From positions 1 through 36,970 of the forward strand of contig CAOJKG010000001.1 of the NCBI GenBank assembly GCA_948437815.1: a stretch of 36,970 bases of DNA. The letters run 5' to 3'. Origin of the DNA: an uncultured Mycoplasmatota bacterium. Lineage in GTDB: Bacteria; Bacillota_I; Bacilli_A; RF39; UBA660. The position numbers were made by a program, and so were the translations under genes. The first letter of the stretch is position 1, and each line of letters starts with the position of its first letter. Below are positions 3,010-30,727 of this stretch, one piece after another. Under the pieces are notes generated by a model. It did no database searches and was not told the DNA's origin. It saw only the letters and a list, made by a program, of their open reading frames with translations.

Positions 3010-4434
3010 ATGAAAAAAGAAGAAAAAAAATATGGTTTACTTAAAGTGATTTTATTATTTGTTTTAGTAGCAATTTTCTTGACTTGGTTACTTCCTTATG
3101 GTCAATTTAATGGCTCGGATTATGTAGACGGAGGAGTTTTAGCAAGAATAGGAATGAGTAGTTTATCTGAGCTTGTTTATTATGCTTTTCAATTTGCTTT
3201 AGATAAGATAGTTATTTTACTCTTCATTGCAGGTTTCTATGGAGTTTTATGTAAAACTAAAGCATACGATGATATTACTTCAAGTATTGCAAAAAAGTTA
3301 AAAAATAAAAAAATTGCTGTTGTAGTATTTTCTATTATTTTAGCAGTTTTAGCAAGTGTGTTAACGCAGACTTTTGTTATTCTTATTTTTGTTCCATTTA
3401 TCGTATCTATTATGAATAAAATGAAACTTGATAAGATAACTATTATTGCTACTACATTTGGTTCAATGTTAGTTGGTGTACTTGGAGCTACTTATGGTAC
3501 TGAAGGATTAATGCTAATAGCAAAAGATAACTTTTTTACAGCAGAAGGGTTTGATCCTAATAAAACTGTTTTAATTAGAGCAGGTATACTTCTTATAAGT
3601 TTAGTTTTATTTAATTTCTTTATAATTTCTCATATGAGTAAAAAAGATAAAGAAAATGAAAATGCTGAAATGTTTCAAATTACAGAAGTAGATGAGAAGA
3701 AAAAAAGTTATGTTCCAATAATTGTTATCGGAATTTTACTAATAATTCTAGTTGTTTTAGGATTTGTTAATTGGAATAAACTAAATATTACTGTTTTTGA
3801 TAGTTTCCATAAGTTAATAACTGAAGATATTAAAATAGGTGAAGATTTTTATATTTTCAAAAGTATTTTAGGATCTAGTCTTAAAGCCTTTGGAAATTGG
3901 GATGTATTTACTATATCTTCAATATTATTTATTTTTACAATAATCATAGGTTTATGTTATCGTTTTAAATTTAATGATTTTGTTGTAGGATTTGCTGAAG
4001 GATGTAAAAAAGTTATTAAGCCATGTATAGTTTTGATGGGAGCTTATTTGGTGATGGGAGTAATTTATATGTCACCGTATTTACCATATATACTTAATAA
4101 AGTATTAAGCTTAACTGAGGGATTTAATGTAGCTACTTCAAGTTTAACTATGCTAATTAGTACTATATTCTGTCCTAATCTTGACTTTATAGGTTATTTA
4201 GGAATACTTAGTCATATGGCAGCAGAATATCCAAATTATATGAATGCTTTATATGTGATAATTTCATCAATTACAGGTTTAACAGCTATTTTTGCACCTA
4301 CAAGTTTAGTGCTAGTAGTAGGCTTAACTTCTCTTGATGTTAATTATAAAGATTGGTTAAAATTTATTTGGAAATTCTTAATTGGAATAGTTATTTGTTT
4401 ACTTGTAATTTTTATACTAATGACTATGATTTAA
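3010..4434 (+). CDS. Polytopic membrane transporter, YfcC/DcuC-like family
   Basis: ORF 2977..4434 trimmed to ATG 3010 after the SD AGGAGGAG. About 12 hydrophobic segments are visible. The N-terminus (LLKVILLFVLVAIFLTWLLPYGQF) resembles the characteristic YfcC-family start as I remember it. Confidence 0.5.
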   Translation: MKKEEKKYGLLKVILLFVLVAIFLTWLLPYGQFNGSDYVDGGVLARIGMSSLSELVYYAFQFALDKIVILLFIAGFYGVLCKTKAYDDITSSIAKKLKNKKIAVVVFSIILAVLASVLTQTFVILIFVPFIVSIMNKMKLDKITIIATTFGSMLVGVLGATYGTEGLMLIAKDNFFTAEGFDPNKTVLIRAGILLISLVLFNFFIISHMSKKDKENENAEMFQITEVDEKKKSYVPIIVIGILLIILVVLGFVNWNKLNITVFDSFHKLITEDIKIGEDFYIFKSILGSSLKAFGNWDVFTISSILFIFTIIIGLCYRFKFNDFVVGFAEGCKKVIKPCIVLMGAYLVMGVIYMSPYLPYILNKVLSLTEGFNVATSSLTMLISTIFCPNLDFIGYLGILSHMAAEYPNYMNALYVIISSITGLTAIFAPTSLVLVVGLTSLDVNYKDWLKFIWKFLIGIVICLLVIFILMTMI

Positions 4435-4458
4435 AGAGGCTATTAAAGCTTCTTTTTT
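4435..4458 (+). terminator. Rho-independent terminator after the permease gene
   Basis: AGAGGCT (4435-4441) pairs with AGCTTCT (4447-4453), including one G-U pair, across loop ATTAA. A T6 run follows. Confidence 0.55.
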
Positions 4459-4472
4459 GACGTTAAAAGACC

Positions 4473-4501
4473 TTGAAAAAGGCTAGTATCTATGCTATAA
4501 T
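4473..4501 (+). promoter_or_regulatory. Strong sigma-A type promoter of the Tad-like operon
   Basis: TTGAAA (4473-4478), a 17-nt spacer, then TATAAT (4496-4501) preceded by an extended -10 TG (4493-4494). It sits directly after a terminator and 25 nt upstream of ATG 4526. Confidence 0.7.
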
Positions 4502-4525
4502 TCTTGTTAGAGGTTGGTGTATACT

Positions 4526-5281
4526 ATGAAAAAATTTAAGTTGGTTGTAGTAACATTTATCGCAGGGCTGTTAGGGATGCCACTTGCATATGCTGAATGT
4601 GATGCAACAGAAACCAATAAGCTTAGCAGTTTAGCTAATAATGTTAAGGTTAGCCAAGAAATAATTCAAAAGGAGTTTGAACTTGGTGTTGGCGATAATC
4701 CTCCTGATGGATTAACAGAAGAGGAAATTAAAGATTATAAAATGAAAGTTGATTACTTTAAAATTTATATTAGTAATATAACAGAAGAAATATATGTAGT
4801 TGTTACTAATAATAATACAAAACAAACTAAAACTTTTAATTATAAAGATACTCAAAATGGTACTGCTTTTTTTGAAGAAGAGGTAGGTTCAGAAATAGTT
4901 AATTATACAATAGAGGTTCATGCTTCAGGTAAAACAAATTGTAATAGTAAAAAACTGAGAACTTTTTATTTAACTACACCAATGTATAATATCTTTAGTG
5001 AATCATCTTTATGCGAAGGCATAAAAGAATTCTATTTATGTCATGAATATTTATCAGTTAAAACAACATTTGATAAATTTGAAGAGTTGACTAATCAGTA
5101 TAGAGATGGAAAACTAAAAGCAGATGGCTCAATTAAAGATGATGATAAAAAAGATAATGGAATTATAGGGTTTATAAAAGAACATAAAGGAACTGTAATT
5201 GTTGCAACTTTAGTTATAATTACAATTGGGGGATTAGTAACAGTGATAATAGTAAAAAAGCAAAGGAGTAGAATAGTATGA
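4526..5281 (+). CDS. Exported type-I membrane-anchored protein, no recognised family (first gene of the Tad-like operon)
   Basis: ORF 4514..5281 trimmed to ATG 4526. The signal peptide is MKKFKLVVVTFIAGLLGMPLAYA, followed by ECD. The C-terminal TM segment is TVIVATLVIITIGGLVTVIIV, followed by the basic stop-transfer KKQRSR. The mature part has 4 Cys. Its stop codon overlaps the next start (ATGA at 5278-5281). Confidence 0.6.
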   Translation: MKKFKLVVVTFIAGLLGMPLAYAECDATETNKLSSLANNVKVSQEIIQKEFELGVGDNPPDGLTEEEIKDYKMKVDYFKIYISNITEEIYVVVTNNNTKQTKTFNYKDTQNGTAFFEEEVGSEIVNYTIEVHASGKTNCNSKKLRTFYLTTPMYNIFSESSLCEGIKEFYLCHEYLSVKTTFDKFEELTNQYRDGKLKADGSIKDDDKKDNGIIGFIKEHKGTVIVATLVIITIGGLVTVIIVKKQRSRIV

Positions 5282-8200
5282 AAAATGTTTTAAGAAATGC
5301 TAGTTTATTTATTATCGCAATTGCATTTACTTTTACTTTTACTTTAGATGTAAAAGCTGATGCTTGTGGAGATTTAGATAATAATCGTTGTAGAATAGGA
5401 ACTCGTGGAGCAATAAAAGTTGCAGGGAATGGTTTTAAATATCAACAACTTTCATCAGCTACATCGAATAATAGAGAATATGTTGGTAGAACATATTATA
5501 ATACGATAAATGTATCAGTAAATTTTAATAATAATCCAGGTAATTATTATTTTTCGCATTATAAAGATTCATATTCTTCATTGTTTTGCTTAGATGCTCA
5601 ATATGAGGGTGGCTCATCAGTTAATGCTGAAAGATTTTTATTAGATACAAGTGAAAGTAAAAAGGTTCAAGTATTCGATGCTGCAGTGATGAGTATATTG
5701 ACAGACGGTGGAGTGCATACTGGTGGTGCTGGAGATGCAACTTATTGGGCTAAATTAATGGCAATACGTGCTATGACTTATACATTTGGTTTTTATAATA
5801 CTGCTAATAAAGATTATCTTTCTGCATTTTATGCTGGTTTAACAGTAGCTCATAATTGGAATGAATTTTATGCTTCTGATGTAGCTGCAGTAAATGCTGA
5901 ACTTGCTAAAATTGGTGCAGGATCTATCGGAAGTGTTCCACTATATAGATCTTATAATTATACAGGTGATCCTGTTAATAGTGGTGCAGGTTATTACGTT
6001 AGAGGACTTGCAGCAGCAGCAGAATATGCAAGAAAATTGGCTTCTCAACCTAAAGTTGAAGTAAGTAATCCTCAAGCTGGAGAAGTAGAAACTTCAGGAG
6101 AAGAGGGAGACGTTTTTGTAAAAAAAGATGTAGTACATACTCTTAAATTAAGTGGTTTTACAGAACAAAATAAATTTATTATAAATTCAAATGATAATTA
6201 TGGAATTAAGTTTGCTGAAGGAACTCAATATGATGGACTAACAGCTTATATTTCTCAAATTGAAATTTCAGGAGGGCCAGTATTATCTAAGGATCAAATA
6301 CCTTATGGTCAGGACTTTGTTGAACTTGGTTATATTAAAGAAAATCAAGATGTTGAAATCAAAATTACTGTTCATTTTGAAGGTTGGAAGTCTTCAACTA
6401 ATTCAAATATAGTAACTTTGAAATGCGGACAAACTCCAATTAAGTATTCTATTGATGGATCTTATGGTACTGGGATGGATGAACAATTTGGTGAGTACAT
6501 CGGAACAGTTTGGTATGCTGGTAAAAAAGAAAAACAAAGATACGTTGGTGTAGAAAGAGTTAGCGAAAGAAGAGAAGATGATGCTGGTACACCATGGGAA
6601 AGTCCTTATGAAACAAACTTAATTGACGCTTGTAGTTGTGATGATTTGGAAGAAGCATGTAAAGCTACTCATAATCCCAATAGTGATGAATGTATTGAAT
6701 TAAAAGAATCTAACTGTGGTATGTGTTCATGGTATGATGTTTTATGTGAATTTGGAGATGAAGAATCTTGTGAAAATTATACTACGCAATGTGATCTAAA
6801 GTGTGATACGTATTTTAAAACTTTTGAATGCTGTGATGAACGTGGGGAATTGATTGTTTCAACCTTAGATGATCATGAAGTTAGTATTTTGGGTCCAGGC
6901 GAAGATAATCCTGATGCTCCAAGTGTAAAAGCTTGTTTTGTTACTGCTGTTGATAATATGGCAAGGGTTTCAGAAGATAGTGATGAGAAAAATAACGCTG
7001 GAGTTGAAGGGGTAAAAGATCAAAAAGATAATACTTATACTTTAGCTGATATGAAATCAAATAGTTATTGTACAGTTTCATGTAAAGAAGATTATATTAT
7101 GACAATGCCTACAGCAAAATTAGTAAATGCTGGTAGATACTTTACATTTAAAGCAAAAGTAGAGGGTACTAAGGCTTGTTATACTAATACGATAGATAGA
7201 GAAAAATATAATAAGGATATTGTTGAAAAACAAAAAGCAATATATGAAGCCTACAATGGTTGGATAAGATATCAGACAGCTTTAGAATCAAATCCTCATA
7301 ATTTGCCTACTGTTACAGAATGTGGTAGTTGTCATGCGTGGTGTCATGGTTCAAGTTGTGATAGTCAAATAACTTATATACCAGGAGCTACAACAGATCA
7401 GTTTTCTTATACAGCTTATTACCCTGAATTTAGCGAGGGAAGGAATGGGTCAGGCCAAACTTTAAGATTAAATCCAACTACAGAATATGGCCCAGAAAGT
7501 GATACTACACAAACACATACAGAAAGCGATGTAGCTAATTGTACTAAAACTTGTTCTAATGGCAATGGAGGTACAACAACATGTCCGTGTGAGCATTCGT
7601 GTAGTTATACTGTTGTTGATGAGGAACGAGATGTTGGCTATTTAATAAAAAGGTTGACAGATCTTAGAGATGGTTACAAGAATGCTCTAGATGCTGCTAT
7701 TGAAGATTATAATCAGACTATAAAGGAATTTAATCAATGTTCAAAATGGGATTCAGAAATTAATTATGATCCTGAAGTTTATTATGATTATTCAGAAACT
7801 GATTATATGAATATGTTAAATAATCATATTGGTGAAATGGAAAAAGATGTACAGACATCTTCAACAAATGATTGGTATTGTAATGGAACTACTACATTAA
7901 ATAATTTTAAATTTGGTCAATTATCAGATCAAAATTATGAACAATGTAATAATTCAAATACTTCTTATGTAGAACCAAAAATGCAATATGTTATGTGTTC
8001 TAGCAGTAAACGCGAATGCTATTTTGATCCTAACTCTTATGTTTCAGAAGCGTCATATAAAAAGGTTACTTCTAAAGTAGTAGCTAATTATAGACCAGCA
8101 ACATTATTCTATAATGCTTATCCGACTGGTGAAATAACTACTAGTAAGGCTGATGACAATGTAGCTTTAGAAAATAAATTACCTGTTGCATTAAATAGAG

Positions 8201-8961
8201 AACGTGGAATTTATAAATATCAAGTTAAAATGGAGAAATTAGGAGAATTTTATGATCAAGCTCCTAGTGACAATTTGGGGCGTTATGTAGGTTCTAGTAC
8301 AGCAGTTGTTGATCCAACAGTTCTGGATTATAATTGTTCTTATTTAGTTAATATAACTAAAACAACTGGTTGGGTATGTGATTTCGATGATGATTGTGAT
8401 GATGACTGTATTGCTAATTGCATAGGACCTAATTGTGATGATTACTGTGATGGTAATGATTGTGTAGCAGATTGTATTGGACTAGGATGTATATATGATT
8501 CAGGTGCTGGAACATCATTATTAGAAAAAGTAGTTTCGTTAAATAGTTTATTTCCAAATGGAACTGATTCTTATAACTGGGATGAAAGAAGAAATGATAA
8601 AGCACGTTTAACTGTATCTGAAATTGAAGGAAAAGGAAATTCTGTATATGATGAAGAACCTATATTAAGTATAACGCTTACTCCTTCAAGTGCTAGAGAA
8701 ATAAAGAAATATAATAATAGTGTTATCAATGATGGTGGATATTCAAATAAAACTGTTTCTTGTGAAAATCGTGATGGATTTGAGCAAATAGTTTGTTATA
8801 GTTCATTTATTGATGATTTACTCGCTGGTGAATTTGGTGATGTAGTTAATGATAACAGCTTAATTGCTGAAGAAAGTTATCGTCATGGATCTTCTGGATA
8901 CTTTGAACTATGGGGTAATGCAGTATCTGAAGATAACATGATTGGTCCAGCTTGGAAGTAG
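5278..8961 (+). CDS. Giant (1227 aa) secreted cysteine-rich protein, no recognised family
   Basis: A long uninterrupted ORF with a signal peptide (MKNVLRNASLFIIAIAFTFTFTLDVKA). I hand-count about 46 Cys, clustered at nt 6631-6834, 7321-7359, 7540-7602 and 8377-8490. There is no LPXTG motif and no C-terminal TM segment. Confidence 0.75.
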   Translation: MKNVLRNASLFIIAIAFTFTFTLDVKADACGDLDNNRCRIGTRGAIKVAGNGFKYQQLSSATSNNREYVGRTYYNTINVSVNFNNNPGNYYFSHYKDSYSSLFCLDAQYEGGSSVNAERFLLDTSESKKVQVFDAAVMSILTDGGVHTGGAGDATYWAKLMAIRAMTYTFGFYNTANKDYLSAFYAGLTVAHNWNEFYASDVAAVNAELAKIGAGSIGSVPLYRSYNYTGDPVNSGAGYYVRGLAAAAEYARKLASQPKVEVSNPQAGEVETSGEEGDVFVKKDVVHTLKLSGFTEQNKFIINSNDNYGIKFAEGTQYDGLTAYISQIEISGGPVLSKDQIPYGQDFVELGYIKENQDVEIKITVHFEGWKSSTNSNIVTLKCGQTPIKYSIDGSYGTGMDEQFGEYIGTVWYAGKKEKQRYVGVERVSERREDDAGTPWESPYETNLIDACSCDDLEEACKATHNPNSDECIELKESNCGMCSWYDVLCEFGDEESCENYTTQCDLKCDTYFKTFECCDERGELIVSTLDDHEVSILGPGEDNPDAPSVKACFVTAVDNMARVSEDSDEKNNAGVEGVKDQKDNTYTLADMKSNSYCTVSCKEDYIMTMPTAKLVNAGRYFTFKAKVEGTKACYTNTIDREKYNKDIVEKQKAIYEAYNGWIRYQTALESNPHNLPTVTECGSCHAWCHGSSCDSQITYIPGATTDQFSYTAYYPEFSEGRNGSGQTLRLNPTTEYGPESDTTQTHTESDVANCTKTCSNGNGGTTTCPCEHSCSYTVVDEERDVGYLIKRLTDLRDGYKNALDAAIEDYNQTIKEFNQCSKWDSEINYDPEVYYDYSETDYMNMLNNHIGEMEKDVQTSSTNDWYCNGTTTLNNFKFGQLSDQNYEQCNNSNTSYVEPKMQYVMCSSSKRECYFDPNSYVSEASYKKVTSKVVANYRPATLFYNAYPTGEITTSKADDNVALENKLPVALNRERGIYKYQVKMEKLGEFYDQAPSDNLGRYVGSSTAVVDPTVLDYNCSYLVNITKTTGWVCDFDDDCDDDCIANCIGPNCDDYCDGNDCVADCIGLGCIYDSGAGTSLLEKVVSLNSLFPNGTDSYNWDERRNDKARLTVSEIEGKGNSVYDEEPILSITLTPSSAREIKKYNNSVINDGGYSNKTVSCENRDGFEQIVCYSSFIDDLLAGEFGDVVNDNSLIAEESYRHGSSGYFELWGNAVSEDNMIGPAWK

Positions 8962-8979
8962 TTAGAGGAGGATAGAGAA

Positions 8980-9393
8980 ATGCAAAGTTCATATTGGGGT
9001 TATTGGTTAGTTTTAATGGGTGTTGCAATAGTAGGGCTTATGGTTTCTGTTAATGGTCTTACTACCACCTCTACTCAAGATCATTATGCAGTAAAAGAAA
9101 TAGTTGAAGCTTCAATGTTGGAGTCTGTTGATTATGGTTATTATAGAGATTACAATGAAGTTAAAATGAATAAAGAGAAATTTATGGAAGTATTTACAAG
9201 AATGTTAGCAGAAAATATGAGTTCAACAGATACTTATGAAATAAATTTTTATGAAATGTATGAAGCTCCACCTAAAGTTAGTGTAGAAGTAAAGAGTCAT
9301 AGTGGAACTAATTTTATTTCTACTTCTGACTATGATGTTACTACTAGAGTAGATGCAATAATTCAAATTCATGCTGAAGAAATTGGCAGATAA
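8980..9393 (+). CDS. Small N-terminally anchored protein (pseudopilin-sized, 137 aa), no recognised family
   Basis: SD GAGGAGGA lies 8 nt upstream. The N-terminus MQSSYWGYWLVLMGVAIVGLMVSV forms a single hydrophobic helix. The rest is hydrophilic with mixed secondary-structure character. There is no G/xxxxE prepilin motif. Confidence 0.6.
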   Translation: MQSSYWGYWLVLMGVAIVGLMVSVNGLTTTSTQDHYAVKEIVEASMLESVDYGYYRDYNEVKMNKEKFMEVFTRMLAENMSSTDTYEINFYEMYEAPPKVSVEVKSHSGTNFISTSDYDVTTRVDAIIQIHAEEIGR

Positions 9394-9404
9394 AGGAGGA
9401 TAAA

Positions 9405-10232
9405 ATGGGAAATATTGTAACAACATTTAAAAGATTCTTTTCGAATAAAAATACTGTTACTATACTTGGTGTGTTACTTGGTTTAATTGTACTTTATGTG
9501 GGGTACAATTATCGTGTTAAGACTGCAGTTAGTACAATAAATGTTCCTGTAGCTAAAAAGACAATATATGGTAGAACAGTTATTACTAGTGATTTAATCA
9601 CACAAACTGAAGTTTTATCTAGTATGGTTACTGGTAAAAATAATACGATTATTAGAAGTAACTCTAATTTAATTAGTGCTAATGATCCTTTTTGCGTAGC
9701 AGTTAATACTAGTATACCTGCAGGAGGATTCTTTCATACAGAACAAGTTGTAAAATGTGGTACTGTAAATGGAAATTATTTAAAAAACATGCCTGACGGA
9801 TATAGTCCTGTAAGTATTCCTGTAGATATTCATAAAACTTATGGTAATTCAATGTTACCAGGAGATTATATAGATTTATATGCGAGAATGACTAGTAGTG
9901 ATGGAAAGTTAATATTTGCTAAATTGGTTAGTAAGTTACCAATTATGGCAGTTGTAGATGGTAAAGGGCAAAGTGTTTTTGGAGGAGTTACTGTAGGTAC
10001 TCCTGCTGAATTACAGTTTGCTTGTCCTAATGTTCAAGATGGCATTAATTTGTTTATGCTTTTGACTAAAGCAATTTTATTAGGAGAGTCTAAAGTTGAA
10101 TTAATACCTATGCCTGGTAATGCAACTTATACATCTACTCCAGGTGAAACTAAGGTAGATAGTAATTATATGATGAATTTAATACTTTCATATACTCAAG
10201 ATGTTCCTGATGAATCTGTACCACAACAATAA
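9405..10232 (+). CDS. CpaB/RcpC-like Flp-pilus assembly protein (SAF domain plus RcpC-like domain)
   Basis: SD AAGGAGGA precedes the start. There is an N-terminal TM segment (VTILGVLLGLIVLYVGY). A SAF-like segment follows (INVPVAKKTIYGRTVITSDLITQTEV). A CpaB-like core is present (SPVSIPVDIHKTYGNSMLPGDYIDLYA). The gene sits immediately upstream of the secretion ATPase, as in Tad loci. Confidence 0.6.
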   Translation: MGNIVTTFKRFFSNKNTVTILGVLLGLIVLYVGYNYRVKTAVSTINVPVAKKTIYGRTVITSDLITQTEVLSSMVTGKNNTIIRSNSNLISANDPFCVAVNTSIPAGGFFHTEQVVKCGTVNGNYLKNMPDGYSPVSIPVDIHKTYGNSMLPGDYIDLYARMTSSDGKLIFAKLVSKLPIMAVVDGKGQSVFGGVTVGTPAELQFACPNVQDGINLFMLLTKAILLGESKVELIPMPGNATYTSTPGETKVDSNYMMNLILSYTQDVPDESVPQQ

Positions 10233-10272
10233 AAAAGAATAATAAAGAATAAAATAAAGGAGGTGACATATT

Positions 10273-11361
10273 TTGAATGATGCAATATTTTCTCAAATTG
10301 ATTTTGGGCCTATAAAAGAGTTTTTAGACATCGATGATATAACCGATATTTCCTATACTAATGGAGGACAGTTGTGGTTAAAATCTTTATCTAAAGGTGT
10401 TTATAGGGTGGAAAGACCAGACATTAATAATGCCTTAATTGAAAAATTGGCATTTCAATGTTCAAATGTTATGGGAAAAACATTCAATATGGCACATCCT
10501 TTTTTAGATGCTGAAAGTACTGAATTACGTCTTAACTTTGTTCATGATTCAATTGCAACTAATGGAGTTGCCTTAGTTATACGTAAAACTCCTGCAAAAA
10601 TTCGTTTGAATAGAGAAAAATTGTTGAATGAAGAATATGTAAGCGCTGATTTACTTGATTTCTTACTTAATTGTGTTCAAGGACATGCTAATATTATAGT
10701 TAGTGGGGAAACTGGTTCAGGAAAAACTGAGTTAGTTAAATATCTTGCTAGTACAACTAAAGAAAATGAGAAAATTATTACAATAGAAGATACTTTAGAG
10801 TTGCACTTAGATAGAATATTTCCGCATCGTGATATAGTAGCAATGAAAACCAATAACATAGCTTCTTATTCAGAAGTGTTAGTTACTTGTATGAGACAGA
10901 ATCCAATATGGATATTATTATCTGAGGTTCGTAGTGCAGAAGCTGTTATGGCTGTTCGTAACTCTATATCTTCTGGTCACCATATAATCTCAACTATTCA
11001 CTCTGATAAAGCAGCTTTGATTCCAATGCGTATGTATAGTTTGATTGAGTCTAATATTGATGTAGAACAATTTGTAACGACAATTCATAGATATGTTCAA
11101 ATAGGTATATATGTAAAGGGATATATGAGTGAGAAACTAGGAAGATTCCAACGTGAGATTATGGAAATTTGTGAGTTTTATGTTGATGAAAATAATAAGC
11201 CACAAGTTAATACTATTTTTCAGAAGACTTTAGATGGTAGATTTACTCTTAATAATCCTACGAAATATTTAAGAAATTATTTGGCAGTTCAAGGGGTTAA
11301 GTTAGAAGAAGATTTATTTCATTTAGGAAATAAAGAACAAGAATTAATTGAAACATTGTAA
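10273..11361 (+). CDS. Secretion ATPase of the TadA/CpaF/VirB11 branch (T2SSE superfamily)
   Basis: TTG start at 10273, about 9 nt after the SD AAGGAGGTGA. Motifs: Walker A GETGSGKT (nt 10705-10728), Asp box ITIEDTLEL, Walker B WILLSEVR, His box GHHIISTIHS. There is no tetracysteine Zn motif, so it is not GspE/PilB-like. Confidence 0.8.
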   Translation: MNDAIFSQIDFGPIKEFLDIDDITDISYTNGGQLWLKSLSKGVYRVERPDINNALIEKLAFQCSNVMGKTFNMAHPFLDAESTELRLNFVHDSIATNGVALVIRKTPAKIRLNREKLLNEEYVSADLLDFLLNCVQGHANIIVSGETGSGKTELVKYLASTTKENEKIITIEDTLELHLDRIFPHRDIVAMKTNNIASYSEVLVTCMRQNPIWILLSEVRSAEAVMAVRNSISSGHHIISTIHSDKAALIPMRMYSLIESNIDVEQFVTTIHRYVQIGIYVKGYMSEKLGRFQREIMEICEFYVDENNKPQVNTIFQKTLDGRFTLNNPTKYLRNYLAVQGVKLEEDLFHLGNKEQELIETL

Positions 11362-11375
11362 AAGGAGGAAGTGAA

Positions 11376-12272
11376 ATGGAGTTAGTTATTTGGTTCGTAA
11401 TAGCTTTATTTGTAATCATTTATCGAAAAAATGATGGCACTGAAACTTTTTATAATTTTTTTAAATCACAATTTGGTAAAATTTATGCTAAATATGCACC
11501 TTATAGTTTCCAAACTATAAGTGCTAAAATGAAAGATCTAAAACAAAATTATACTATGAAAGATTATGTGGTTCAAATAGTAATATTAGGTGGATTTGCT
11601 GGAGGAGTGGCATTTTTATACTTTTATAATTTTATTATGGTAGCGATTTATGGAGGACTTGCTATTGCATTTGTTCCTTATCTAGCATGGCTTAGAAGTA
11701 AAAGAATATATAGTGAATATATATTTGAGCAAATTCAAGTTTATACTACTAACGTAATTATGGAGTTTAATACGACACAGAGTTTTGTTAAATCTTTAGA
11801 AGGTGTTAGAGATTCAGGAATACTCGAAGATCCTGTTTTGGAAGATTTGAAAGTTATGATTAATATGTCTTATCAAAATGGTACAATTGACGAATCAATT
11901 GAATATTTTAATGAAAAATATCCTTATTATATGGTAAAGAATATGCATCAATTATTCTTACAAATTACTAAGGAAGGTGCTAAAGATTCAGGAGAAGCTT
12001 TAGAAAATATGAGTATGGATATAGATGCTTTAGTTGAAGGTGTTTATCGTGATCAAATGGATCGTAAGCAATTTCATACTAAATTTATTACTTTTGCATG
12101 TGTATTATTTTTACTCGTTATGGTAATGCAGGTTTTACTTGGTAGAAAGAATTATATGTTACTTTTAGATTTATGGTATGCTCATATAGTATTACATGCC
12201 ATAATAATTATTAATAGTTATTTCTTACTCACAGGAGAAAAATATTATAATGATGATGTGGGGGTAGAGTAA
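11376..12272 (+). CDS. TadB-like inner-membrane platform protein (T2SSF-like topology)
   Basis: SD AAGGAGGAAG precedes the start. The topology is an N-terminal TM segment, a TM pair (IVILGGFAGGVAFLYFYNFIMVAIYGGLAIAFVPYLAW), a helical cytoplasmic domain of ~130 aa, and C-terminal TM segments. The gene directly follows the ATPase. The assignment rests on topology and position more than on recognisable motifs. Confidence 0.5.
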   Translation: MELVIWFVIALFVIIYRKNDGTETFYNFFKSQFGKIYAKYAPYSFQTISAKMKDLKQNYTMKDYVVQIVILGGFAGGVAFLYFYNFIMVAIYGGLAIAFVPYLAWLRSKRIYSEYIFEQIQVYTTNVIMEFNTTQSFVKSLEGVRDSGILEDPVLEDLKVMINMSYQNGTIDESIEYFNEKYPYYMVKNMHQLFLQITKEGAKDSGEALENMSMDIDALVEGVYRDQMDRKQFHTKFITFACVLFLLVMVMQVLLGRKNYMLLLDLWYAHIVLHAIIIINSYFLLTGEKYYNDDVGVE

Positions 12273-13066
12273 TGCAAATAGAGTTAGCGATAGTAGCAAT
12301 TATTGTTTTTTATATTTTATCTAAAAGTGGCAGAATAAGCATAAGCAAGTTAATTGCCGATAATGAAATGTATTTTAGAAGATTAAAAGAAAGTGATTAT
12401 GAATTTTATGTAAAAGCTAAGTATGGAGATTCAGTAAATGCAGATATATTATTCAATAAAAGGTTACAAAATTCTTTGATTGTAATGCTGGTAGTCTTTT
12501 GTTTACTTCTAAAAAATATGTCTTATTTGTACTTTATTGTTGTTTTGATCGTAGGTTTTGCCTTCTTTAAATTAGATTATATGAATTTGAAAGGGTATTA
12601 TAAAAAACATTTACATGAGATAGATACAATGCTTCCTTATTACTTAAAGGGACTAGAAATATTAATTCAACACTATACAGTTCCAGTAGCAATAGGAAAA
12701 TCACTTGATGATGCACCAGATATATTTAAAGATGGTCTAAAAGAATTAATAAATAAAATAAATGCTGGAGATGACACGATTGAACCTTATATGGATTTTG
12801 CAAGACAGTATCCTGTTAGAGATTCCATGCGTATGATGCGTTTACTTTATCGTCTTAGTTTGGGTAGACAAGAGCGTAAACAAGAGCAATTAATAGCGTT
12901 TTCTAAAACTATTTCAAATCTACAACAAAAAGCAAGAGAAACTAAATATAAAAATCGTTTGGATAAAATGGAGTCTAAAACTATGAGTATGCTTATTGCA
13001 ACAGGTGTAGGTGTAATGGTATTACTTATTATATCAGTATTAATATTAATGAATGCGAGTGGTTAA
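12272..13066 (+). CDS. TadC-like inner-membrane platform protein (T2SSF domain)
   Basis: The start overlaps the previous stop (TAATG at 12270-12274). The cytoplasmic segment LPYYLKGLEILIQHYTVPVAIGKSLDDAPDIFKDGLKELINKINAGDD...FARQYP has the GspF/TadC-like pattern. TM segments flank it (LIVMLVVFCLLL..., MSMLIATGVGVMVLLIISVLILM). Confidence 0.55.
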   Translation: MQIELAIVAIIVFYILSKSGRISISKLIADNEMYFRRLKESDYEFYVKAKYGDSVNADILFNKRLQNSLIVMLVVFCLLLKNMSYLYFIVVLIVGFAFFKLDYMNLKGYYKKHLHEIDTMLPYYLKGLEILIQHYTVPVAIGKSLDDAPDIFKDGLKELINKINAGDDTIEPYMDFARQYPVRDSMRMMRLLYRLSLGRQERKQEQLIAFSKTISNLQQKARETKYKNRLDKMESKTMSMLIATGVGVMVLLIISVLILMNASG

Positions 13067-13095
13067 CAATTTTTTACATAATTTAGGTTAATAAC

Positions 13096-13124
13096 TTGAC
13101 ATTTAACGTAGATTTAGATAAAAT
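13096..13124 (+). promoter_or_regulatory. Internal sigma-A type promoter dedicated to the last gene of the Tad-like cluster
   Basis: TTGACA (13096-13101), a 17-nt spacer, then TAAAAT (13119-13124). It lies in the only sizeable intergenic gap of the cluster (13067-13148). Confidence 0.6.
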
Positions 13125-13154
13125 TAATATAGATAAGAAAGCGAGGAAATGTGT

Positions 13155-13571
13155 ATGTTAACAATGGCACCATCAGTTTGTTCTGATTTATGGGGAGTAT
13201 GGCAAATCTTAGGTTGGGTTTTAATGGTATTTAAAATAGTTATTCCAATTTTAATAATTTTATTTGGTATGATAGATTTAGGAAAAGCTGTAGTAGCAAG
13301 TAAAGATGATGAAATTAAGAAAGCTATTAAATCTCTTGCTATGAGAGCTGTAGCAGGTATTGTTATATTCTTTATTCCAACTTTAGTTGCAACTATCTTC
13401 AAGTTAGTAGATGGCTTCCAAGAAGTTAAAGGCGAGTATGATGTATGTGCTACATGTATTAGTAGTCCTGGTAAGTGTCAAACTACTGCTGAATCTCATT
13501 GTACTAGTCATAGTGGCACTTGGAACAAAGATACTGGTTGTAGTGGCTTCCAAGCAACAAAAACTGAATAA
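13155..13571 (+). CDS. Small two-TM hairpin membrane protein with a Cys-rich C-terminal tail (VirB2/TrbC-like topology; candidate unconventional filament subunit)
   Basis: ORF 13149..13571 has ATG codons at 13149 and 13155, and I prefer 13155 because it is 7 nt after GAGGA. TM1 is WQILGWVLMVFKIVIPILIILFGMI. The charged loop is DLGKAVVASKDDEIKKAIKSLAMR. TM2 is AVAGIVIFFIPTLVATIFKLV. The 48-aa tail contains 5 Cys (VCATCISSPGKCQTTAESHCTSHSGTWNKDTGC). Confidence 0.6.
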   Translation: MLTMAPSVCSDLWGVWQILGWVLMVFKIVIPILIILFGMIDLGKAVVASKDDEIKKAIKSLAMRAVAGIVIFFIPTLVATIFKLVDGFQEVKGEYDVCATCISSPGKCQTTAESHCTSHSGTWNKDTGCSGFQATKTE

Positions 13572-13574
13572 TAA

Positions 13575-13601
13575 GAATTCCGATTTTGGAATTTTTTTTT
13601 G
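13575..13601 (+). terminator. Rho-independent terminator ending the Tad-like cluster
   Basis: GAATTCC (13575-13581) pairs with GGAATTT (13588-13594) across loop GATTTT, followed by a run of nine or more T. Confidence 0.7.
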
Positions 13602-13831
13602 AATTTGATGTATGTTATATTATGAATATAACTTGGCCTTTAAGTTATAGGGGTTAATTGTTTTTAGGTGGTGTGAGCAATAAGTGTTCCTAATAAAAGA
13701 TAAGATATTAATTGAATTGATTTTTTTGATAAAATAAAGGAAATTATATTAAAATAATTGAAAGAGGAGGTTTAAAAATTAATAATTTGAGCGTTTTTTG
13801 TGATTTTTGATTATTTTTAGTTATAAAATTA

Positions 13832-13860
13832 TTGACTTTTGGCATAATATTTTATATACT
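13832..13860 (+). promoter_or_regulatory. Sigma-A type promoter of tRNA-Asn
   Basis: TTGACT (13832-13837), a 17-nt spacer, then TATACT (13855-13860). The mature tRNA 5' end is 12 nt downstream. Confidence 0.65.
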
Positions 13861-13871
13861 TTAGTAGTACT

Positions 13872-13947
13872 GCTCGTTTAGCTCAGTCGGTAGAGCGCAC
13901 GGCTGTTAACCGTTAGGTCGTAGGTTCGAGTCCTACAACGAGCGCCA
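13872..13947 (+). tRNA. tRNA-Asn (anticodon GTT), CCA encoded
   Basis: I folded a 76-nt cloverleaf by hand. The acceptor stem is GCTCGTT/AACGAGC (7 Watson-Crick pairs). The D arm is GCTC-AGTCGGTA-GAGC. The anticodon loop is CTGTTAA with GTT at 13905-13907, and there is one C-T mismatch at position 27:43. The T arm is GTAGG-TTCGAGT-CCTAC. The discriminator is G, followed by CCA. Confidence 0.92.
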
Positions 13948-13958
13948 TTTGAATTATT

Positions 13959-13982
13959 AAGTCTAGTTTCTAGACTTTTTTC
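13959..13982 (+). terminator. Rho-independent terminator after tRNA-Asn
   Basis: AAGTCTAG (13959-13966) pairs with CTAGACTT (13970-13977), followed by a T-run. Confidence 0.7.
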
Positions 13983-14048
13983 TTTTTCTTAAAAAAGCTA
14001 TTAATATAGATAAAATATATGTTAAAATAGTAGAAGAAGGAATTTATT

Positions 14049-16391: not shown

Positions 16392-19300
16392 TAAAGAAGG
16401 AACAAATATTATAGTTTCAGCAGGGGCTGGTTCAGGTAAAACAGCGGTACTTTCAGAAAGAGTTCTTCGTAAGCTTAAAAGTGGTGTTGATATAAGAAAT
16501 ATTTTAATTCTAACTTTTACTAATGAAGCGGCTGGAGAAATGAAAAATAGAATAAGAAAGAAAATTAAAAAAGCTAATTTAACAGAGCAATTAGAATATA
16601 TTGATGTGGCTAATATTACAACTTTTGATGCTTATGCCCTAGGAATAGTAAAAAAATATCATTATCTTCTAGGAATAGGTAAGAATATTTCAATTATTGA
16701 TTCTTCTATATTAGATTTAGAAAAGTTAAGAATATTAGATGAAATAATGAGTGAATATTATGCTAAAAAAGATGCTAGATTCTTGAAATTAGTCGGAGAT
16801 TTTACAGTTCGCGATGATGAACAGATTAAAGATGTTATTTTAAATATAAATAAAGCATTAGATTTAAAATATGATAAAAATGATTTCTTAAATTCTTACA
16901 TAGAAGGTTTTTATAATGAAAGTAATATAGATAAATTATTTAAAGAATATTTTTTATATTTAAAAAATCTATGTGAAGAATTAGAAAATAATATTTATGA
17001 AATAGGAGAGTATTTAGAAGAAAAATTATATGTTAAAGTAAGTGATGCTTATTCTATATTCTTTAAACCAAATAATTATAATGATTTATATAAAATAAAA
17101 GATTTACCAAGAGTACAGTTTAGAGGTATTCCGAGTGATGCTTTAGAATTAAAAGAAAATATCAAAACTTTAGTTACAAATATTCAAAATCTTACTATAG
17201 ATAGTGAAGAAGAATTAAAAAATCAAATTATATTAACTAAAGATTATGTTAGTATAATTATTGAAATTATTTTGGAACTTGATAAGAGATTAAATAATTT
17301 TAAAAATGAAAAAGAAGCTTTTGAATTTAGCGATATAGCTAAAATGGCTATAAAAATAGTTAGTGATAATGAAATTATTAGAGAAGAAATAAAACATACC
17401 TATAATGAAATAATGATTGATGAGTATCAAGATACTAATGATTTACAAGAAGCTTTTATTTCAAAAATAGAAAATAATAATGTTTATATGGTGGGAGATA
17501 TTAAACAATCTATTTATAGATTTAGAAATGCTAATCCTAATATTTTTAAAAATAAATATGATAATTATGCTAAACATATAAATGGGGAAAAAATAGATTT
17601 ACTTAAAAACTTTAGATCAAGAAGTGAAGTTCTTAGTAATATTAACGAAATATTTAGTTTAATTATGACAGAAAAATATGGTGGGGTAGATTATAAAAAT
17701 AATCATGAGATGGTTTATGGTAATCTAGCTTATATTAATGAAGGTAAAACTAATTATTCTAATGATTTGGAAATACTTAAATATGATAATAAAGATTCTG
17801 ATTTTAATAATGTAGAGGTTGAAGCTTTTACAATAGTTAAAGATATCAAAAATAAAATTCAAAATAAATATCAAGTTTATGATTTTGAAATAGGCAAAAA
17901 AAGAGATATTTTGTTTAGTGATTTTTGCATTATTTTAGATAGAGGCACGGATATGCCAACTTATAAAAAGATATTTGAATATTTTGGTATTCCGATGGAT
18001 GTTTATAAAGACAGTAATTTAGTAAATGAAAATGATATTTTAGTTATTAAAAATATTGTTAGTTTGATATTAGCAATAAAAAATAAAGAGTTTGATACAA
18101 AAATGCGTTACTATTTTACTAGTATAGCCAGAAGTTTTATTGGGGATTTATCTGATGCAGAAATATTAAATTATATAGATAAAAATACTTTTTATGAGTC
18201 AATCATTTATAAAAAATGTGATAAAATAGCTAGAGATTTAGATAATAAAACAGCAGGATTATTATTAGAAGAAATAATCGAAAGTTTTAAATTTTATGAA
18301 TGTTTAATTAAAGGTGGAAATATTTCAAATAGTATTAAACGTCTTCATTATTTAATTGATTTAGCTAATATGGCTGAAGTTTTAGGATTTTCCATAATAG
18401 ATTTTAAAGAATATTTGGAAAAAATGGTAGATAATAGAAAAGAAATAAGACAGAAACAAGATAAGAATAGTAGTAATTCAGTAAAAATAATGAATATTCA
18501 TAAATCTAAAGGGTTAGAATTTCCTATTTGTTATTTTGCAGGATTTAAAAAGAATTTTAATTTAGGAGAAATAAAAGAAAAATTTTTGTATGATAATAAA
18601 TATGGAATTTTAACACCTTATTTTAAAGATGGTATTGGTACTACTTTTATCAAAACTTTAATAAAGAATAATTATGAGACAGAAGAAATATCAGAGAAAA
18701 TAAGACTTTTTTATGTAGCTTTAACAAGAGCTAAAGAAAAAATGATAATGGTAATACCAGAATTTAAAAAGCCGTTAAAACAAAGTATAGTTGTAAATGA
18801 TATAGTGGCTAGTAAATATCGTTCTTTTTATGATTTTATTTCTTCTATTGCAATTAATCTAAATAAATATATTAAACCTATTTCTTTGGATACTTTAGAT
18901 TTAACTAAAGATTATGAATTTAGTAATAATCAAGTTATCTTTAATGAAGAAAAAGAAGAAAAAAAGAAAATAGAATTTAAGCCAATAAATATTGAAGTAG
19001 AATTAGAAGATAAGAAACACGCTTCTAAAAAGATATTAGAAGTTTTAAATAAAAGTGATGCTAAAACTTTAGAATATGGTACGAAAATTCATGAAGAGTT
19101 AGAATTAATTAATTTTAAAGATAATAATGATAATAAATATATTAATGCTTTAAAAGCTAAATTTGATTTTAATAAGGCAATTATTTATCAAGAATTAGAG
19201 TTTTATTTTACTAAAGAGACAGTTGAATATCATGGAATAATTGATTTAATGCTCGAGTATGAAAATGAAATAATTATTATTGATTATAAACTTAAAAATA

Positions 19301-19440: not shown

Positions 19441-19512
19441 AGTAAATATTATACTAAATACTAGTTTAGATGCATATTTTATGATAGAATAATTTTAAGA
19501 GGAGGGATATAT

Positions 19513-20067: not shown

Positions 20068-20092
20068 GACTTACGTTGTTAAGTCTTTTTTT
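20066..20092 (+). terminator. Terminator-like hairpin between lemA and the DUF2207 gene
   Basis: AAGACTTA (20066-20073) pairs with TAAGTCTT (20080-20087) across loop CGTTGT, followed by T7. Confidence 0.55.
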
Positions 20093-20109
20093 GGAGGAGT
20101 GGGTACTTT

Positions 20110-30707: not shown

Positions 30708-30727
30708 TTTAAAAAGGTGCGAAAATA

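Follow-up and report, generated by a model that had tools for sequence, protein, structure and literature searches.

A cysteine-rich protein of an uncultured gut bacterium as the putative variable binding subunit of a Tad-like envelope machine

We found that a 1,227-amino-acid (aa) cysteine-rich protein, encoded by an uncultured gut bacterium, has no known homologues, that its cysteines are strongly conserved and are lost in pairs, and that a cassette in its middle part is mosaic between strains. We give about an even chance to the reading that it serves an uncharacterised Tad-like envelope machine as a variable, disulfide-stapled binding subunit. Its fold would be held by some 18-22 intramolecular disulfides arranged in self-contained modules, with one conserved Cys left unpaired, and the protein would be the large subunit exposed by a machine that is conserved and fixed in the chromosome, comprising a CpaF/VirB11-clade ATPase, two polytopic proteins, a CpaB-like protein, a DUF5411 protein and a VirB2-like hairpin protein. 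The analysis covered one stretch of DNA of 36,970 nucleotides (~37 kb), referred to below as the window.

The cysteine-rich gene and its upstream partner

The start of the operon contains the following features:
4473 to 4501, + strand: promoter-like site TTGAAA-17-TATAAT with an extended TG, 11 of 12 positions, in the intergenic gap before the operon
4514 to 5281, + strand: 255-aa partner protein, probable ATG at 4526, from sequence and hydropathy
5278 to 8961, + strand: ORF of the Cys-rich protein, 1,227 aa plus stop, 46 Cys
5278 to 5358, + strand: signal peptide, aa 1-27, n-h-c layout, cleavage predicted between VKA and DA (MKNVLRNASLFIIAIAFTFTFTLDVKA followed by DA)

The Cys-rich gene looks real, since AAAGGAG lies 8 nt 5′ of its start, its ATG shares ATGA with the stop of the upstream gene (a 4-nt overlap), and full-length intact ORFs of the family are found in >130 diverged lineages. 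Translation of 5278-8961 gave exactly the 46 Cys counted in the preliminary description. Cys makes up 3.75% of the protein versus 0.99% of the 30 other ORFs of the window (binomial p = 6e-14). The proposed signal peptide, judged from sequence, is conserved in homologues; A27 (position -1) is invariant and V25 (-3) nearly invariant among 37 of them. The sole hydrophobic stretch of the protein is N-terminal, and we, too, found neither an LPXTG-like motif nor a C-terminal transmembrane (TM) segment. Export by Sec and secretion are the best explanation of these features.

The description of the protein as lacking an anchor is thus true of the protein itself, but not of its surroundings: the coupled upstream gene encodes a C-terminally TM-anchored protein and is co-duplicated with it. 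This 255-aa partner, for which a Pfam search returned no match, is predicted to have a signal peptide, an ectodomain of ~190 aa with four conserved Cys, a TM segment at aa 224-250 and a basic tail. It lies directly 5′ of the Cys-rich gene, with the 4-nt overlap, in five independent lineages (the window, L043, L044, L045 and L046), and in L011 and L026 both genes occur as a tandemly duplicated pair. To judge from this layout, the Cys-rich gene is translationally coupled to its partner, and the gene linkage makes the 255-aa protein most likely the membrane tether of the Cys-rich protein, attaching it to the cell, and the two would be made in a fixed ratio. The site at 4473-4501 is the best + strand promoter match within 4300-14100; what speaks for it is its position, as promoter-like sites overall were no more numerous than expected from shuffled sequence.

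The Cys-rich protein had no match in Pfam, NCBIfam, PHROG, PDB sequences or Foldseek, where searches against PDB and viral libraries (including BFVD) gave nothing significant. Together with the conserved ORF and signal peptide, this leaves the preliminary description of a secreted Cys-rich protein intact. By sequence comparison it belongs to a large undescribed family of ~655 clusters, all metagenomic. One member, P0175, carries an NlpC/P60 insert, a link to the cell wall that we counted for the binding-subunit reading.

Conservation and pairing of the cysteines

Downstream of the signal peptide, the protein can be divided as follows:
5359 to 6630, + strand: N-terminal beta/alpha region, aa 28-451, AF2 pLDDT mostly 72-95, lineage-variable and mosaic between strains
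6631 to 6834, + strand: patch 1, 12-Cys module, aa 452-519, four short helices predicted by AF2
6835 to 7197, + strand: most conserved central region, aa 520-640, YC.VSCKEDY...NAGRYFTF...C.YTNTID
7238 to 7691, + strand: hypervariable cassette, ~aa 654-805, ~150 aa, containing Cys patches 2 and 3
7738 to 7740, + strand: Cys821 codon; the residue lies in YN.C[ST].W, where stalk helix 2 ends
7747 to 8376, + strand: C-terminal beta-rich region, aa 824-1033, long strands, AF2 fragment model with pLDDT ~80-93
8377 to 8490, + strand: patch 4, acidic 9-Cys ladder, aa 1034-1071, CDFDDDCDDDCIANCIGPNCDDYCDGNDCVADCIGLGC
8491 to 8958, + strand: C-terminal alpha/beta region, aa 1072-1227, ending in conserved GP[SA]WK

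The alignment of homologues, proposed earlier as a check, showed that the cysteines are conserved: 37 of the 46 are absent from at most two of 37 homologues, conservation averages 0.89 for Cys versus 0.49 for other residues, and 25 are still conserved over 136 relatives at ~30% identity. All of these 136 diverse members are Cys-rich, with 21-63 Cys each (mean 3.45%). Distant relatives align mostly only from ~aa 500 on, and the best-conserved parts of the family include aa 520-640, where C553, C598, C602 and C634 are near-invariant, and aa 1072-1227. In the N-terminal region Cys104, within the motif [FY]-C-[LI]-D, is present in 136/136 members; in the beta-rich region C1020 is invariant.

We confirmed the four patches of Cys described previously, namely 12 in 68 aa (6631-6834), 4 in 13 (7321-7359), 5 in 21 (7540-7602) and 9 in 38 (8377-8490). 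Each of the 12 Cys of patch 1 is kept by 35 or more of the 37 homologues (patch 1 and the region following it contain 8, 12 or 16 Cys across the family), and all nine of the ladder are found in 37/37 homologues and are largely conserved family-wide. Patches 2 and 3 fall within the hypervariable cassette and for that reason keep no conserved position.

Where Cys are lost, they tend to go two at a time: 1162/1173 in the C-terminal region were lost together in 4/4 cases, 907/914 in 10 of 11-12 and 868/890 in 7 of 9-13, the latter two pairs belonging to the beta-rich region, and 490/498 are co-substituted in homologue P0033; four Cys of the ladder also go together, as one block. Parity is also conserved, in the sense opposite to the earlier argument, which relied on an even number of Cys. 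The mature count is odd in 124/136 family members (p = 1e-24) and in 34/37 close homologues; the present allele is even because its own cassette has 9 Cys. Even counts had also been reported for two further exported proteins: the four Cys of the 255-aa protein were reproduced, whereas the six of the 140-aa protein depend on a start at M3 and are not obtained with M1.

In the great majority of members the Cys counts come out even when the cassette, the N-terminal region and the C-terminus are each taken separately; the cassette count is even in 123/124 of the odd-total members. The one segment with odd parity is aa 816-1080, with 15 Cys. Since 868/890 and 907/914 behave as pairs there, and C1020 and the ladder together account for ten Cys, the single Cys that the family leaves unpaired is probably Cys821 (Cys in 135/136 members), the best candidate. 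As these patterns read, members of the family have many disulfides and, as a rule, set one further Cys aside, unpaired. Conservation, loss in pairs and conserved parity show the Cys density to be structural and conserved, very probably through extensive disulfide bonding, as had been proposed, and the odd Cys makes an intermolecular disulfide plausible.

We consider it unlikely that the Cys clusters, especially the acidic ladder and the 12-Cys module, are mainly zinc, iron-sulfur or other metal sites. The ladder could bind metal: its Cys density is metallothionein-like (9 in 38 aa, with many Asp), and within the C-terminal model pLDDT falls below 50 here alone (not confidently modelled), as a missing cofactor would lead one to expect. 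Four of its Cys (C1048, C1053, C1057 and C1062) are lost as one block, which fits one tetrahedral site, and the gut lumen is reducing. Outside the ladder, however, the loss of Cys two at a time and the mostly even segment counts are a signature of disulfides rather than of metal sites, and His is not enriched (1.1%). Sec exports unfolded chains, which makes insertion of a complex cofactor unlikely.

Against disulfide formation may be set that the carriers are strict gut anaerobes and that no thiol oxidoreductase was found in the 37-kb window. The generalisation that extracellular proteins of low-GC, anaerobe-type Firmicutes are Cys-poor, made in the preliminary description, needs qualifying: Cys exclusion was documented mainly for aerobic Firmicutes, and anaerobic ones are less strict (PMC2823432).

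The hypervariable cassette

The cassette sits between two long helices predicted by AF2 (aa 641-670 and 786-823). It has no nucleotide similarity to that of locus L001, whereas the ~12 kb of flanks are 94-96% identical, and identity to homologue P0002 is 0.1-0.3 in the cassette versus mostly 0.9-1.0 over aa 1-630 and 931-1227. Among 37 sequences we found at least 16 cassette types, mosaic relative to the backbone, with 21 pairs sharing a backbone but not a cassette and nine pairs showing the reverse. Comparison with L002 places a second recombination breakpoint close to nt 7022, with 49-74% nucleotide identity over 5414-7021 versus 85-91% downstream. The cassette is, on this comparative evidence, variable, swapped across backbones and probably exposed.

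In the reading that we favour, a two-helix stalk would present the ~150-aa Cys-paired cassette at its tip as a ligand- or receptor-binding surface, and the central aa 520-640 and the C-terminal part from ~aa 930 would dock onto the machine or the partner. Strains would exchange the cassette by recombination, and the N-terminal region too, though less so; diversifying pressure from host antibody, phage or partner specificity would be expected to bring about such exchange. The Foldseek searches against PDB and viral libraries yielded no structural homologue in favour of an adhesin role.

Target-specific variable modules are also common in toxins, and the top Foldseek matches of the C-terminal model, which has long beta strands, were parasporin-2, aerolysin, LSL, CDTb, iota Ib and Cry51, all non-significant. 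These, and the NlpC/P60 domain of one relative, could suggest a secreted beta-pore-forming or antibacterial effector, deployed or exported by the ATPase system and aimed by the cassette. We find this quite improbable: the aerolysin-type matches all had E ≥0.5, probability ≤0.06 and TM-scores of ~0.1, no immunity-like gene was evident, the protein's own Sec signal makes export by the ATPase unnecessary, and the variable part is internal, unlike the C-terminal one of polymorphic toxins.

The Tad-like operon and its locus

Downstream of the Cys-rich gene the operon continues with:
8980 to 9393, + strand: DUF5411 protein, 137 aa, N-terminal TM, 0 Cys, PF17424 E = 3.9e-50
9405 to 10232, + strand: CpaB/RcpC-like bitopic protein, 275 aa, PF16976 E = 6e-4 and TIGR03177 E = 3.7e-6, both below curated cut-offs
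10273 to 11361, + strand: CpaF/VirB11/FlaI-clade secretion ATPase, 362 aa, PF00437 E = 1.1e-26
11376 to 13066, + strand: two polytopic membrane proteins, 298 and 264 aa, from hydropathy, in the TadB/TadC position
13096 to 13124, + strand: promoter-like site TTGACA-17-TAAAAT, 11 of 12 positions, before the small hairpin-protein gene
13149 to 13571, + strand: 140-aa two-TM hairpin protein, weakly VirB2/T4SS_pilin-like, PF18895 E = 0.0019, below cut-off

The best solved relatives of the ATPase are CpaF (5e-16), FlaI and VirB11. The two polytopic proteins match each other weakly (hhalign E = 0.038) and had no T2SSF, other Pfam or PDB match. The CpaF-clade ATPase, the CpaB-like protein and the polytopic pair placed as TadB/TadC liken the operon to Tad; it differs from Tad in that the parts which define Tad are missing: no Flp or type IV pilin signal, prepilin peptidase, TadZ or detectable T2SSF domain was found in the window. 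A type IV filament or Tad-like envelope machine is the best explanation of this set of genes.

Gene order is identical in ~40 MAG loci and in four distant operons, the DUF5411 gene following the Cys-rich gene in every locus examined, and the neighbours LysS, DcuC and AddAB are constant over ~40 species-level genomes. As far as gene order tells, the locus is core chromosomal, with the Cys-rich gene always ahead of the machine genes. Across loci the machinery proteins are 80-97% identical versus 30-82% for the Cys-rich protein; the ATPase is 91-97% identical where LysS is 67-95% (mostly ~80%), and the polytopic proteins are 79-95% (mostly 80-88%) identical across related loci. The Cys-rich protein is likely the machine's exposed binding subunit because it always accompanies this conserved pilus-type motor.

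The same strict co-inheritance with the machinery in all lineages would suit a wall-spanning scaffold or conduit, playing in a monoderm the part of a secretin or alignment complex, whose cassette is merely exposed to phage or antibody. The central and C-terminal regions are the most conserved, the window's organism has a cell wall (MurG, MurB and FtsQ are encoded in the window), the peptidoglycan hydrolase domain inserted in one member recalls wall-crossing machines, and the odd Cys could join subunits into an oligomer. This possibility, which overlaps and is compatible with our preferred explanation, is doubtful: Foldseek detected no ring-forming or secretin-like fold, and swapping of a Cys-paired, stalk-displayed cassette fits binding proteins better than scaffolds.

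GPR endopeptidase (above the NCBIfam cut-off) and SpoIIP are also encoded in the window, the operon, with its ATPase and small membrane proteins, loosely resembles spoIIIA, and spore coats and exosporia typically contain cross-linked, Cys-rich proteins. It is nevertheless very improbable that the operon is a sporulation channel or spore-surface assembly, with the Cys-rich protein a cross-linked component of the spore envelope. The ATPase's 23 NCBIfam matches include no SpoIIIAA model, the sporulation genes are >10 kb off and functionally unlinked, and the hypervariable cassette suggests that vegetative cells expose it to host or phage. To our knowledge, Cys-rich coat proteins lack Sec signals.

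A VirB11-like ATPase, a weakly VirB2-like protein and a hypervariable binding-type cassette might also be expected of a tail fibre, receptor-binding protein or conjugation module acquired from a phage or mobile element. To such an origin we assign a barely appreciable chance, given the constant neighbours, the lack of a PHROG match or BFVD fold match, and the absence of VirB4, relaxase, integrase and phage genes from the window.

The hairpin protein itself has a Cys near its N-terminus and a variable, Cys-rich C-terminal tail. The weak PF18895 match recurs on one small hairpin-type gene of the distant operon L044, where there are several paralogues.

Conserved cysteines of the secreted protein

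We found that the open reading frame at 5278-8961 (+) is real and translates without interruption into 1,227 amino acids. A hand count had given 46 cysteines, concentrated in four patches; the exact count is likewise 46, and the patches hold 12 cysteines in 68 residues, 4 in 13, 5 in 21 and 9 in 38, as described. Cysteine makes up 3.75% of the protein against 0.99% in the 30 other open reading frames of the window (p = 6e-14), and the GC content of the window is 26%. The signal peptide noticed earlier was confirmed as an N-terminus of Sec layout with V-x-A, in which the -1 position is invariant and the -3 position nearly invariant among homologues. The only hydrophobic part is N-terminal and, as had been stated, the protein has no LPXTG-like motif and no C-terminal transmembrane or hydrophobic stretch; the C-terminal combination of LPXTG, hydrophobic segment and basic tail that marks sortase-anchored adhesins was not found in it, and the chain ends in a conserved ...MIGPAWK. 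The sequence AAAGGAG lies 8 nt 5′ of the start, and the ATG shares an ATGA with the stop codon of the gene directly upstream, which encodes a 255-aa protein (hereafter, the partner).

A word-indexed search gave 42 full-length homologues of the Cys-rich protein (37-100% identity), and the search repeated with the alignment returned the same 42 proteins. Distant members were reached by a full HMM scan of 1.84 billion representatives, which detected 655 clusters of the family (clustering at 50% identity), 303 of them at E <= 1e-30. All members come from uncultured gut Firmicutes with reduced genomes, and the family is entirely unannotated; its carriers are prevalent in humans and animals, and very little has been described of their surface biology. 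The Cys-rich protein matched nothing in Pfam, NCBIfam or PHROGs, and queries of PDB sequences, by the protein alone and by a 37-sequence profile, gave no match either.

In an alignment of 37 homologues, 37 of the 46 cysteines are kept in at least 35 sequences, and mean conservation is 0.89 for cysteines versus 0.49 for other positions. Among 136 diverse full-length family members, all of them rich in cysteine (21-63 each), 25 cysteines stay conserved and seven (C104, C518, C553, C598, C634, C1020 and C1071) are invariant. Where cysteines of these members are lost, they tend to go together: C1162 and C1173 in 4/4 cases, C907 and C914 in 10 of 11-12, and C868 and C890 in 7 of 9-13, and C1048, C1053, C1057 and C1062 disappear as one block of four; in one homologue (P0033), C490 and C498 are both substituted. 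Such joint loss is the pattern that would be expected of disulfides, and not of scattered free thiols. Both alignments thus bear out the earlier claim that the cysteines are conserved and structural, and the suggestion that they probably form disulfides is supported, given that they are conserved, covary or are lost in pairs and keep their parity, as in disulfide-stabilised exported proteins generally. A rival explanation is that the cysteines bind metal, which is most plausible at the fourth patch, a ladder of nine cysteines (aa 1034-1071).

The preliminary description had also drawn attention to the even number of cysteines. The argument from evenness was not borne out: the mature count is odd in 124/136 family members (p = 1e-24) and in 34 of the 37 close homologues, and the window protein is among the few exceptions. 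Counted by segment, parity is even in most members for the N-terminal region, in all for the C-terminal end, mostly for the 12-Cys module of patch 1 plus the central region, and in 123/124 for a hypervariable cassette (aa ~654-805). The sole odd segment is aa 816-1080, with 15 cysteines. Setting aside the 868/890 and 907/914 pairs, and counting C1020 with the ladder as ten, leaves C821 over. C821, which is present in 135/136 members within the motif YN.C[ST].W, is thus the likeliest candidate for the reserved unpaired cysteine. With 9 cysteines in its cassette, where an even number is usual, the window allele ends up even. Through the reserved odd cysteine, one intermolecular disulfide could form, which would either join two copies as a dimer or tie the protein to a different subunit.

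Cysteines lost in pairs, even parity within modules and a single reserved odd cysteine together give a clean computational sign of disulfides being used by strict anaerobes, and raise the question of which oxidase makes the bonds in such organisms; no gene for a thiol oxidase of the DsbA, BdbD, MdbA or VKOR type was found within the 37-kb window. The disulfide-dependent surface fibres known from Gram-positive bacteria, namely actinobacterial pilins folded by MdbA and the disulfide-cross-linked endospore appendages of Bacillus, have few cysteines and known folds. The Cys-rich protein would resemble them as an extracellular monoderm protein stabilised by Cys-Cys bonds, possibly with an intermolecular disulfide via the odd cysteine of its family. 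It differs in its 37 conserved cysteines plus a variable set, in showing no detectable homology to those proteins and in its origin from a strict anaerobe. Avoidance of cysteine in exported proteins has been documented mainly for aerobic Firmicutes (PMC2823432), and 46 cysteines are far beyond anything described there. The protein contradicts the usual picture of Firmicutes avoiding exported cysteine.

Cys104 (window 5587-5589), in the motif [FY]-C-[LI]-D, is the sole N-terminal cysteine invariant in 136/136 members, and C383, its presumed neighbour, is absent from 22/136. Known motifs of thioester-domain (TED) adhesins offered a lead, as Cys104 sits near the N-terminus of a large surface protein, in a mixed beta/alpha domain. 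We rejected it: neither PF08341 nor TIGR03934 matched at E up to 0.01, the glutamine motif T-Q-x-A-[IV]-W is absent, Foldseek gave no match to TED structures, and the similarity is confined to the motif on the cysteine side.

The hypervariable cassette and the predicted structure

The window and a related locus in another genome (L001) align over ~12 kb at 94-96% nucleotide identity, window 7238-7691 excepted, where there is no detectable similarity and a segment of similar length stands in its place. The two allele proteins differ strongly over aa 661-810 (identity 0.1-0.3) and are mostly close to identical (0.9-1.0) over aa 1-630 and aa 931-1227, with intermediate values between. The second and third cysteine patches are present as first described; both fall inside this cassette, and so belong to the variable part of the protein. 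The 37 sequences fall into at least 16 cassette types; 21 sequence pairs share a common backbone (>0.85 identity) with unlike cassettes (<0.35), and nine pairs carry one cassette type on diverged backbones. A further breakpoint, against the related locus L002, lies near nt 7022, with 49-74% identity upstream and 85-91% downstream. The alleles form a mosaic. Neither another copy of the cassette nor a reverse transcriptase occurs in the window (no such domain in the scanned ORFs), which makes a diversity-generating retroelement (DGR), or silent cassettes kept nearby, an improbable source of the variation; the alleles are, moreover, unalignable rather than point-mutated.

Some 100 distinct 90%-identity clusters (P0217-P0317; 1,138-1,140 aa; example locus L046:10001-13417) apparently come from one abundant lineage. 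In 99 variants of this unrelated lineage the cysteine count is 33 every time, and the stretch between two helices, equivalent to the cassette, is again the least conserved, with variation concentrated there.

AF2 modelled the full mature protein at pLDDT 68, with good confidence over roughly the first 640 mature residues; aa 806-1227 alone, with a deeper alignment, reached 76.8, the ladder being the sole low-confidence part of this C-terminal model. The predicted order of parts is as follows.

Parts of the Cys-rich protein in the AF2 models, from the N-terminus
1: signal peptide
2: mixed beta/alpha N-terminal region
3: 12-Cys module, as four short helices
4: highly conserved central region
5: long helix (aa 641-670), poorly modelled insert, long helix (aa 786-823)
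6: beta-rich region with long strands
7: acidic 9-Cys ladder
8: conserved alpha/beta C-terminus

Foldseek-type fold searches, of the full mature model against PDB and BFVD and of the C-terminal model against PDB, returned nothing significant. One rival explanation is that the protein is a secreted toxin, and the best matches of the C-terminal model were indeed aerolysin-type toxins; they came at E = 0.5-4, probability <=0.06 and TM-scores of ~0.1, so that no significant similarity to the aerolysin/ETX-MTX2 fold was seen.

We infer that the cassette would be stalk-mounted, internally disulfide-bonded and swapped by recombination, and presented as a recognition surface with a binding role under some selective agent. 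In that role it may be what sets specificity for host, phage or partner, and it could be used as a strain marker or be targeted in IgA-seq or phage-host work.

The operon and its relation to type IV filament systems

Within its operon the Cys-rich gene comes second; the features of the operon are listed below.

Features of the operon, in order
4473-4501: promoter-like site at the operon start
4514-5281, +: partner, 255 aa, with signal peptide, four conserved cysteines and a C-terminal transmembrane anchor
5278-8961, +: Cys-rich protein, 1,227 aa
after the Cys-rich gene: DUF5411 protein (PF17424, E = 4e-50)
upstream of the ATPase: protein weakly matching CpaB/RcpC (PF16976, E = 6e-4, 20.2 bits, cut-off 28.8; TIGR03177, E = 3.7e-6, 26.4 bits, cut-off 71)
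10273-11361: ATPase of the secretion superfamily (PF00437, E = 1.1e-26, above cut-off; nearest solved relatives CpaF (E = 5e-16), FlaI and VirB11)
after the ATPase: two polytopic proteins of no detectable family
13149-13571: 140-aa protein forming a two-transmembrane hairpin with a Cys-rich tail, with its own promoter-like site; weakly like VirB2-type pilins (PF18895, E = 0.0019, 18.7 bits, cut-off 26.6)

The order of the operon and its neighbours LysS, DcuC and AddAB are kept in ~40 species-level MAGs (labelled uncultured Bacilli, Tenericutes or Mycoplasma sp.), and the core order was found again in four distant operons, where the big protein is only ~30% identical. A mobile or phage origin of the Cys-rich gene was weighed as an alternative and is contradicted by this core synteny. 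The 4-nt overlap between the partner gene and the big gene is kept in the distant operons too, and the two genes are tandemly duplicated as a unit in two related loci, L011 (4585-13756) and L026 (4085-13669). L011 contains the Cys-rich gene twice in full, the products sharing 39% and 42% identity with the window protein; the extra material in L026 is another partner gene and a C-terminal piece of the big gene. In each of the MAGs Lapin-014 bin58 and Lapin-008 bin76, family members occur on two contigs.

Across the related loci L001-L042, identity is 91-97% for the ATPase and 79-95% (mostly 80-88%) for the polytopic proteins, compared with 67-95% (mostly ~80%) for LysS, 30-82% for the Cys-rich protein and 31-68% for the partner. 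Conservation of the ATPase beyond that of a lysyl-tRNA synthetase suggests very strong constraint on the machine, possibly a branch of its own within the type IV filament superfamily.

We compared the operon with Gram-positive Tad (type IVc) pili, such as those of Bifidobacterium breve and Bulleidia extructa (PMC12786226) and the TANB77 cluster (PMC11680825), and with large minor-pilin or tip proteins such as TadG. The points in common are these: the ATPase belongs to the CpaF/TadA clade with CpaF as its best solved match, a CpaB-like protein precedes it, two polytopic proteins occupy the TadB/TadC position, the operon includes a gene for a large extracellular protein, and the carrier is a host-associated, reduced-genome Firmicute. 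The polytopic proteins match TadB/TadC in size, position and topology, and homology searches did not bear the assignment out: T2SSF (PF00482) gave no match even at E up to 10, PDB profile searches were empty and hhalign gave no support. The same three approaches (Pfam at E up to 10, PDB profiles, hhalign) found no relative that would place DUF5411. A regular-expression search of all ATG-start window ORFs of at least 35 aa gave no Flp-type class III signal (G/XXXXEY), the operon has no TadE or Flp Pfam match, no prepilin peptidase TadV (Peptidase_A24) occurs among window ORFs of at least 80 aa, and Flp/type IV pilin, TadE/F and TadZ were not found in the window. Since Flp/type IV pilin, prepilin peptidase, TadZ and T2SSF are missing from the window, the operon is not to be filed as Tad. 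Furthermore, the Cys-rich protein has an ordinary Sec signal peptide, in contrast to the pilin-like N-terminus of Tad pilins, its extreme cysteine content and cassette-type hypervariability are undescribed for Tad components, and the small, abundant-looking protein of the operon is a two-transmembrane hairpin where Tad has the Flp pilin.

Type IV secretion systems (T4SS) were also considered, as the ATPase matches the VirB11 model TIGR02788 (E = 5.5e-32, below the curated cut-off; every NCBIfam equivalog score of the ATPase is under its cut-off) and the hairpin protein, which has paralogues in one distant operon (L044), weakly matches T4SS_pilin PF18895, below cut-off. However, no VirB4, VirB6, VirB8, coupling protein or relaxase was found in the operon or the window. 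To our knowledge, VirB4 is the only ubiquitous T4SS protein, and CpaB-like and DUF5411 proteins are not components of T4SS.

In the hairpin protein, the membrane part is highly conserved (GMIDLGKAVVASKDDEIKK...IFFIPT), a conserved cysteine precedes TM1, and the variable tail has a conserved C-x2-C and more cysteines. The weak PF18895 match recurs in L044, which has at least three or four paralogues at ~17800-20760, resembling the variable VirB2-like pilin arrays reported from Patescibacteria (bioRxiv 10.1101/2025.01.22.634366).

Our literature searches on the family or the system turned up canonical Tad loci and one prediction, by Miller et al. 2022 (PMC9523054), of an uncharacterised 'secretion-related' operon in Roseburia, Ruminococcus and Eubacterium, which is computational only and gives no mechanism. 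That operon is likewise from gut Firmicutes and has a CpaF-type ATPase, a polytopic 'PilC/GspF-like' protein, DUF5411 and unannotated neighbours; in contrast, the components listed for it are small (478-aa and 151-aa 'internalin-like'), with no ~1,200-aa and no Cys-rich protein.

Most likely, the Cys-rich protein is a variable subunit on the surface, belonging to a system that resembles type IV filaments. Its family is large and unannotated and its fold is not recognisable, and the linked machine is unusual and very conserved. It would be exported, stapled by disulfides and work with the Tad-like (type IV filament superfamily) machine, while the co-translated, membrane-anchored partner would hold it at the cell. 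Alternatively, it could be a wall-spanning scaffold, in favour of which one relative of 1,514 aa (P0175, L045:2104-6648), in the same operon context, has an NlpC/P60 peptidoglycan-hydrolase domain inserted at aa 739-825. A sporulation-linked structure is a further, unlikely alternative. The whole system may, with fair probability, constitute a class of its own. It is conceivable, although we think it rather improbable, that the operon represents an undescribed class of monoderm envelope nanomachine, on which reduced-genome uncultured gut Bacilli and relatives would depend for attachment to host surfaces or partner cells. Such a machine would combine a motor of the CpaF/VirB11 clade with a platform that has no detectable T2SSF domain. 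Its subunits would be VirB2-like hairpins instead of pilins with a class III signal peptide, a prepilin peptidase would be absent, and a giant disulfide-laced subunit of new fold would have one cysteine reserved for covalent coupling and a swapped recognition cassette.

Other features of the window

A second ATPase, of the PilB/GspE/ComGA type (32162-33379, -; PF00437, E = 1e-123), is unlinked to the operon, so that a conventional type IV pilus or competence system is probably encoded in the genome as well. The window encodes GPR protease (above the NCBIfam cut-off), SpoIIP, MurG, MurB and FtsQ at 23535-24263, 26509-27462 and 28739-31519. The organism is of a walled lineage that probably forms spores or once did; related MAGs are nonetheless labelled Tenericutes or Mycoplasma sp.

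The lysyl-tRNA synthetase (802-2796) has 664 aa and a fused C-terminal tRNA_bind (PF01588) domain, an appendage known mainly from synthetases other than LysRS. Upstream of lysS, in a position kept across the lineage, 62-775 encodes a small exported protein that has a weak LPXTG-anchor signal (TIGR01167, E = 0.006) and diverges fast (31-46% identity at most loci). Between the operon and addB lies a tRNA-Asn (GTT) gene (13872-13947), followed by a terminator-like hairpin at 13959-13977.
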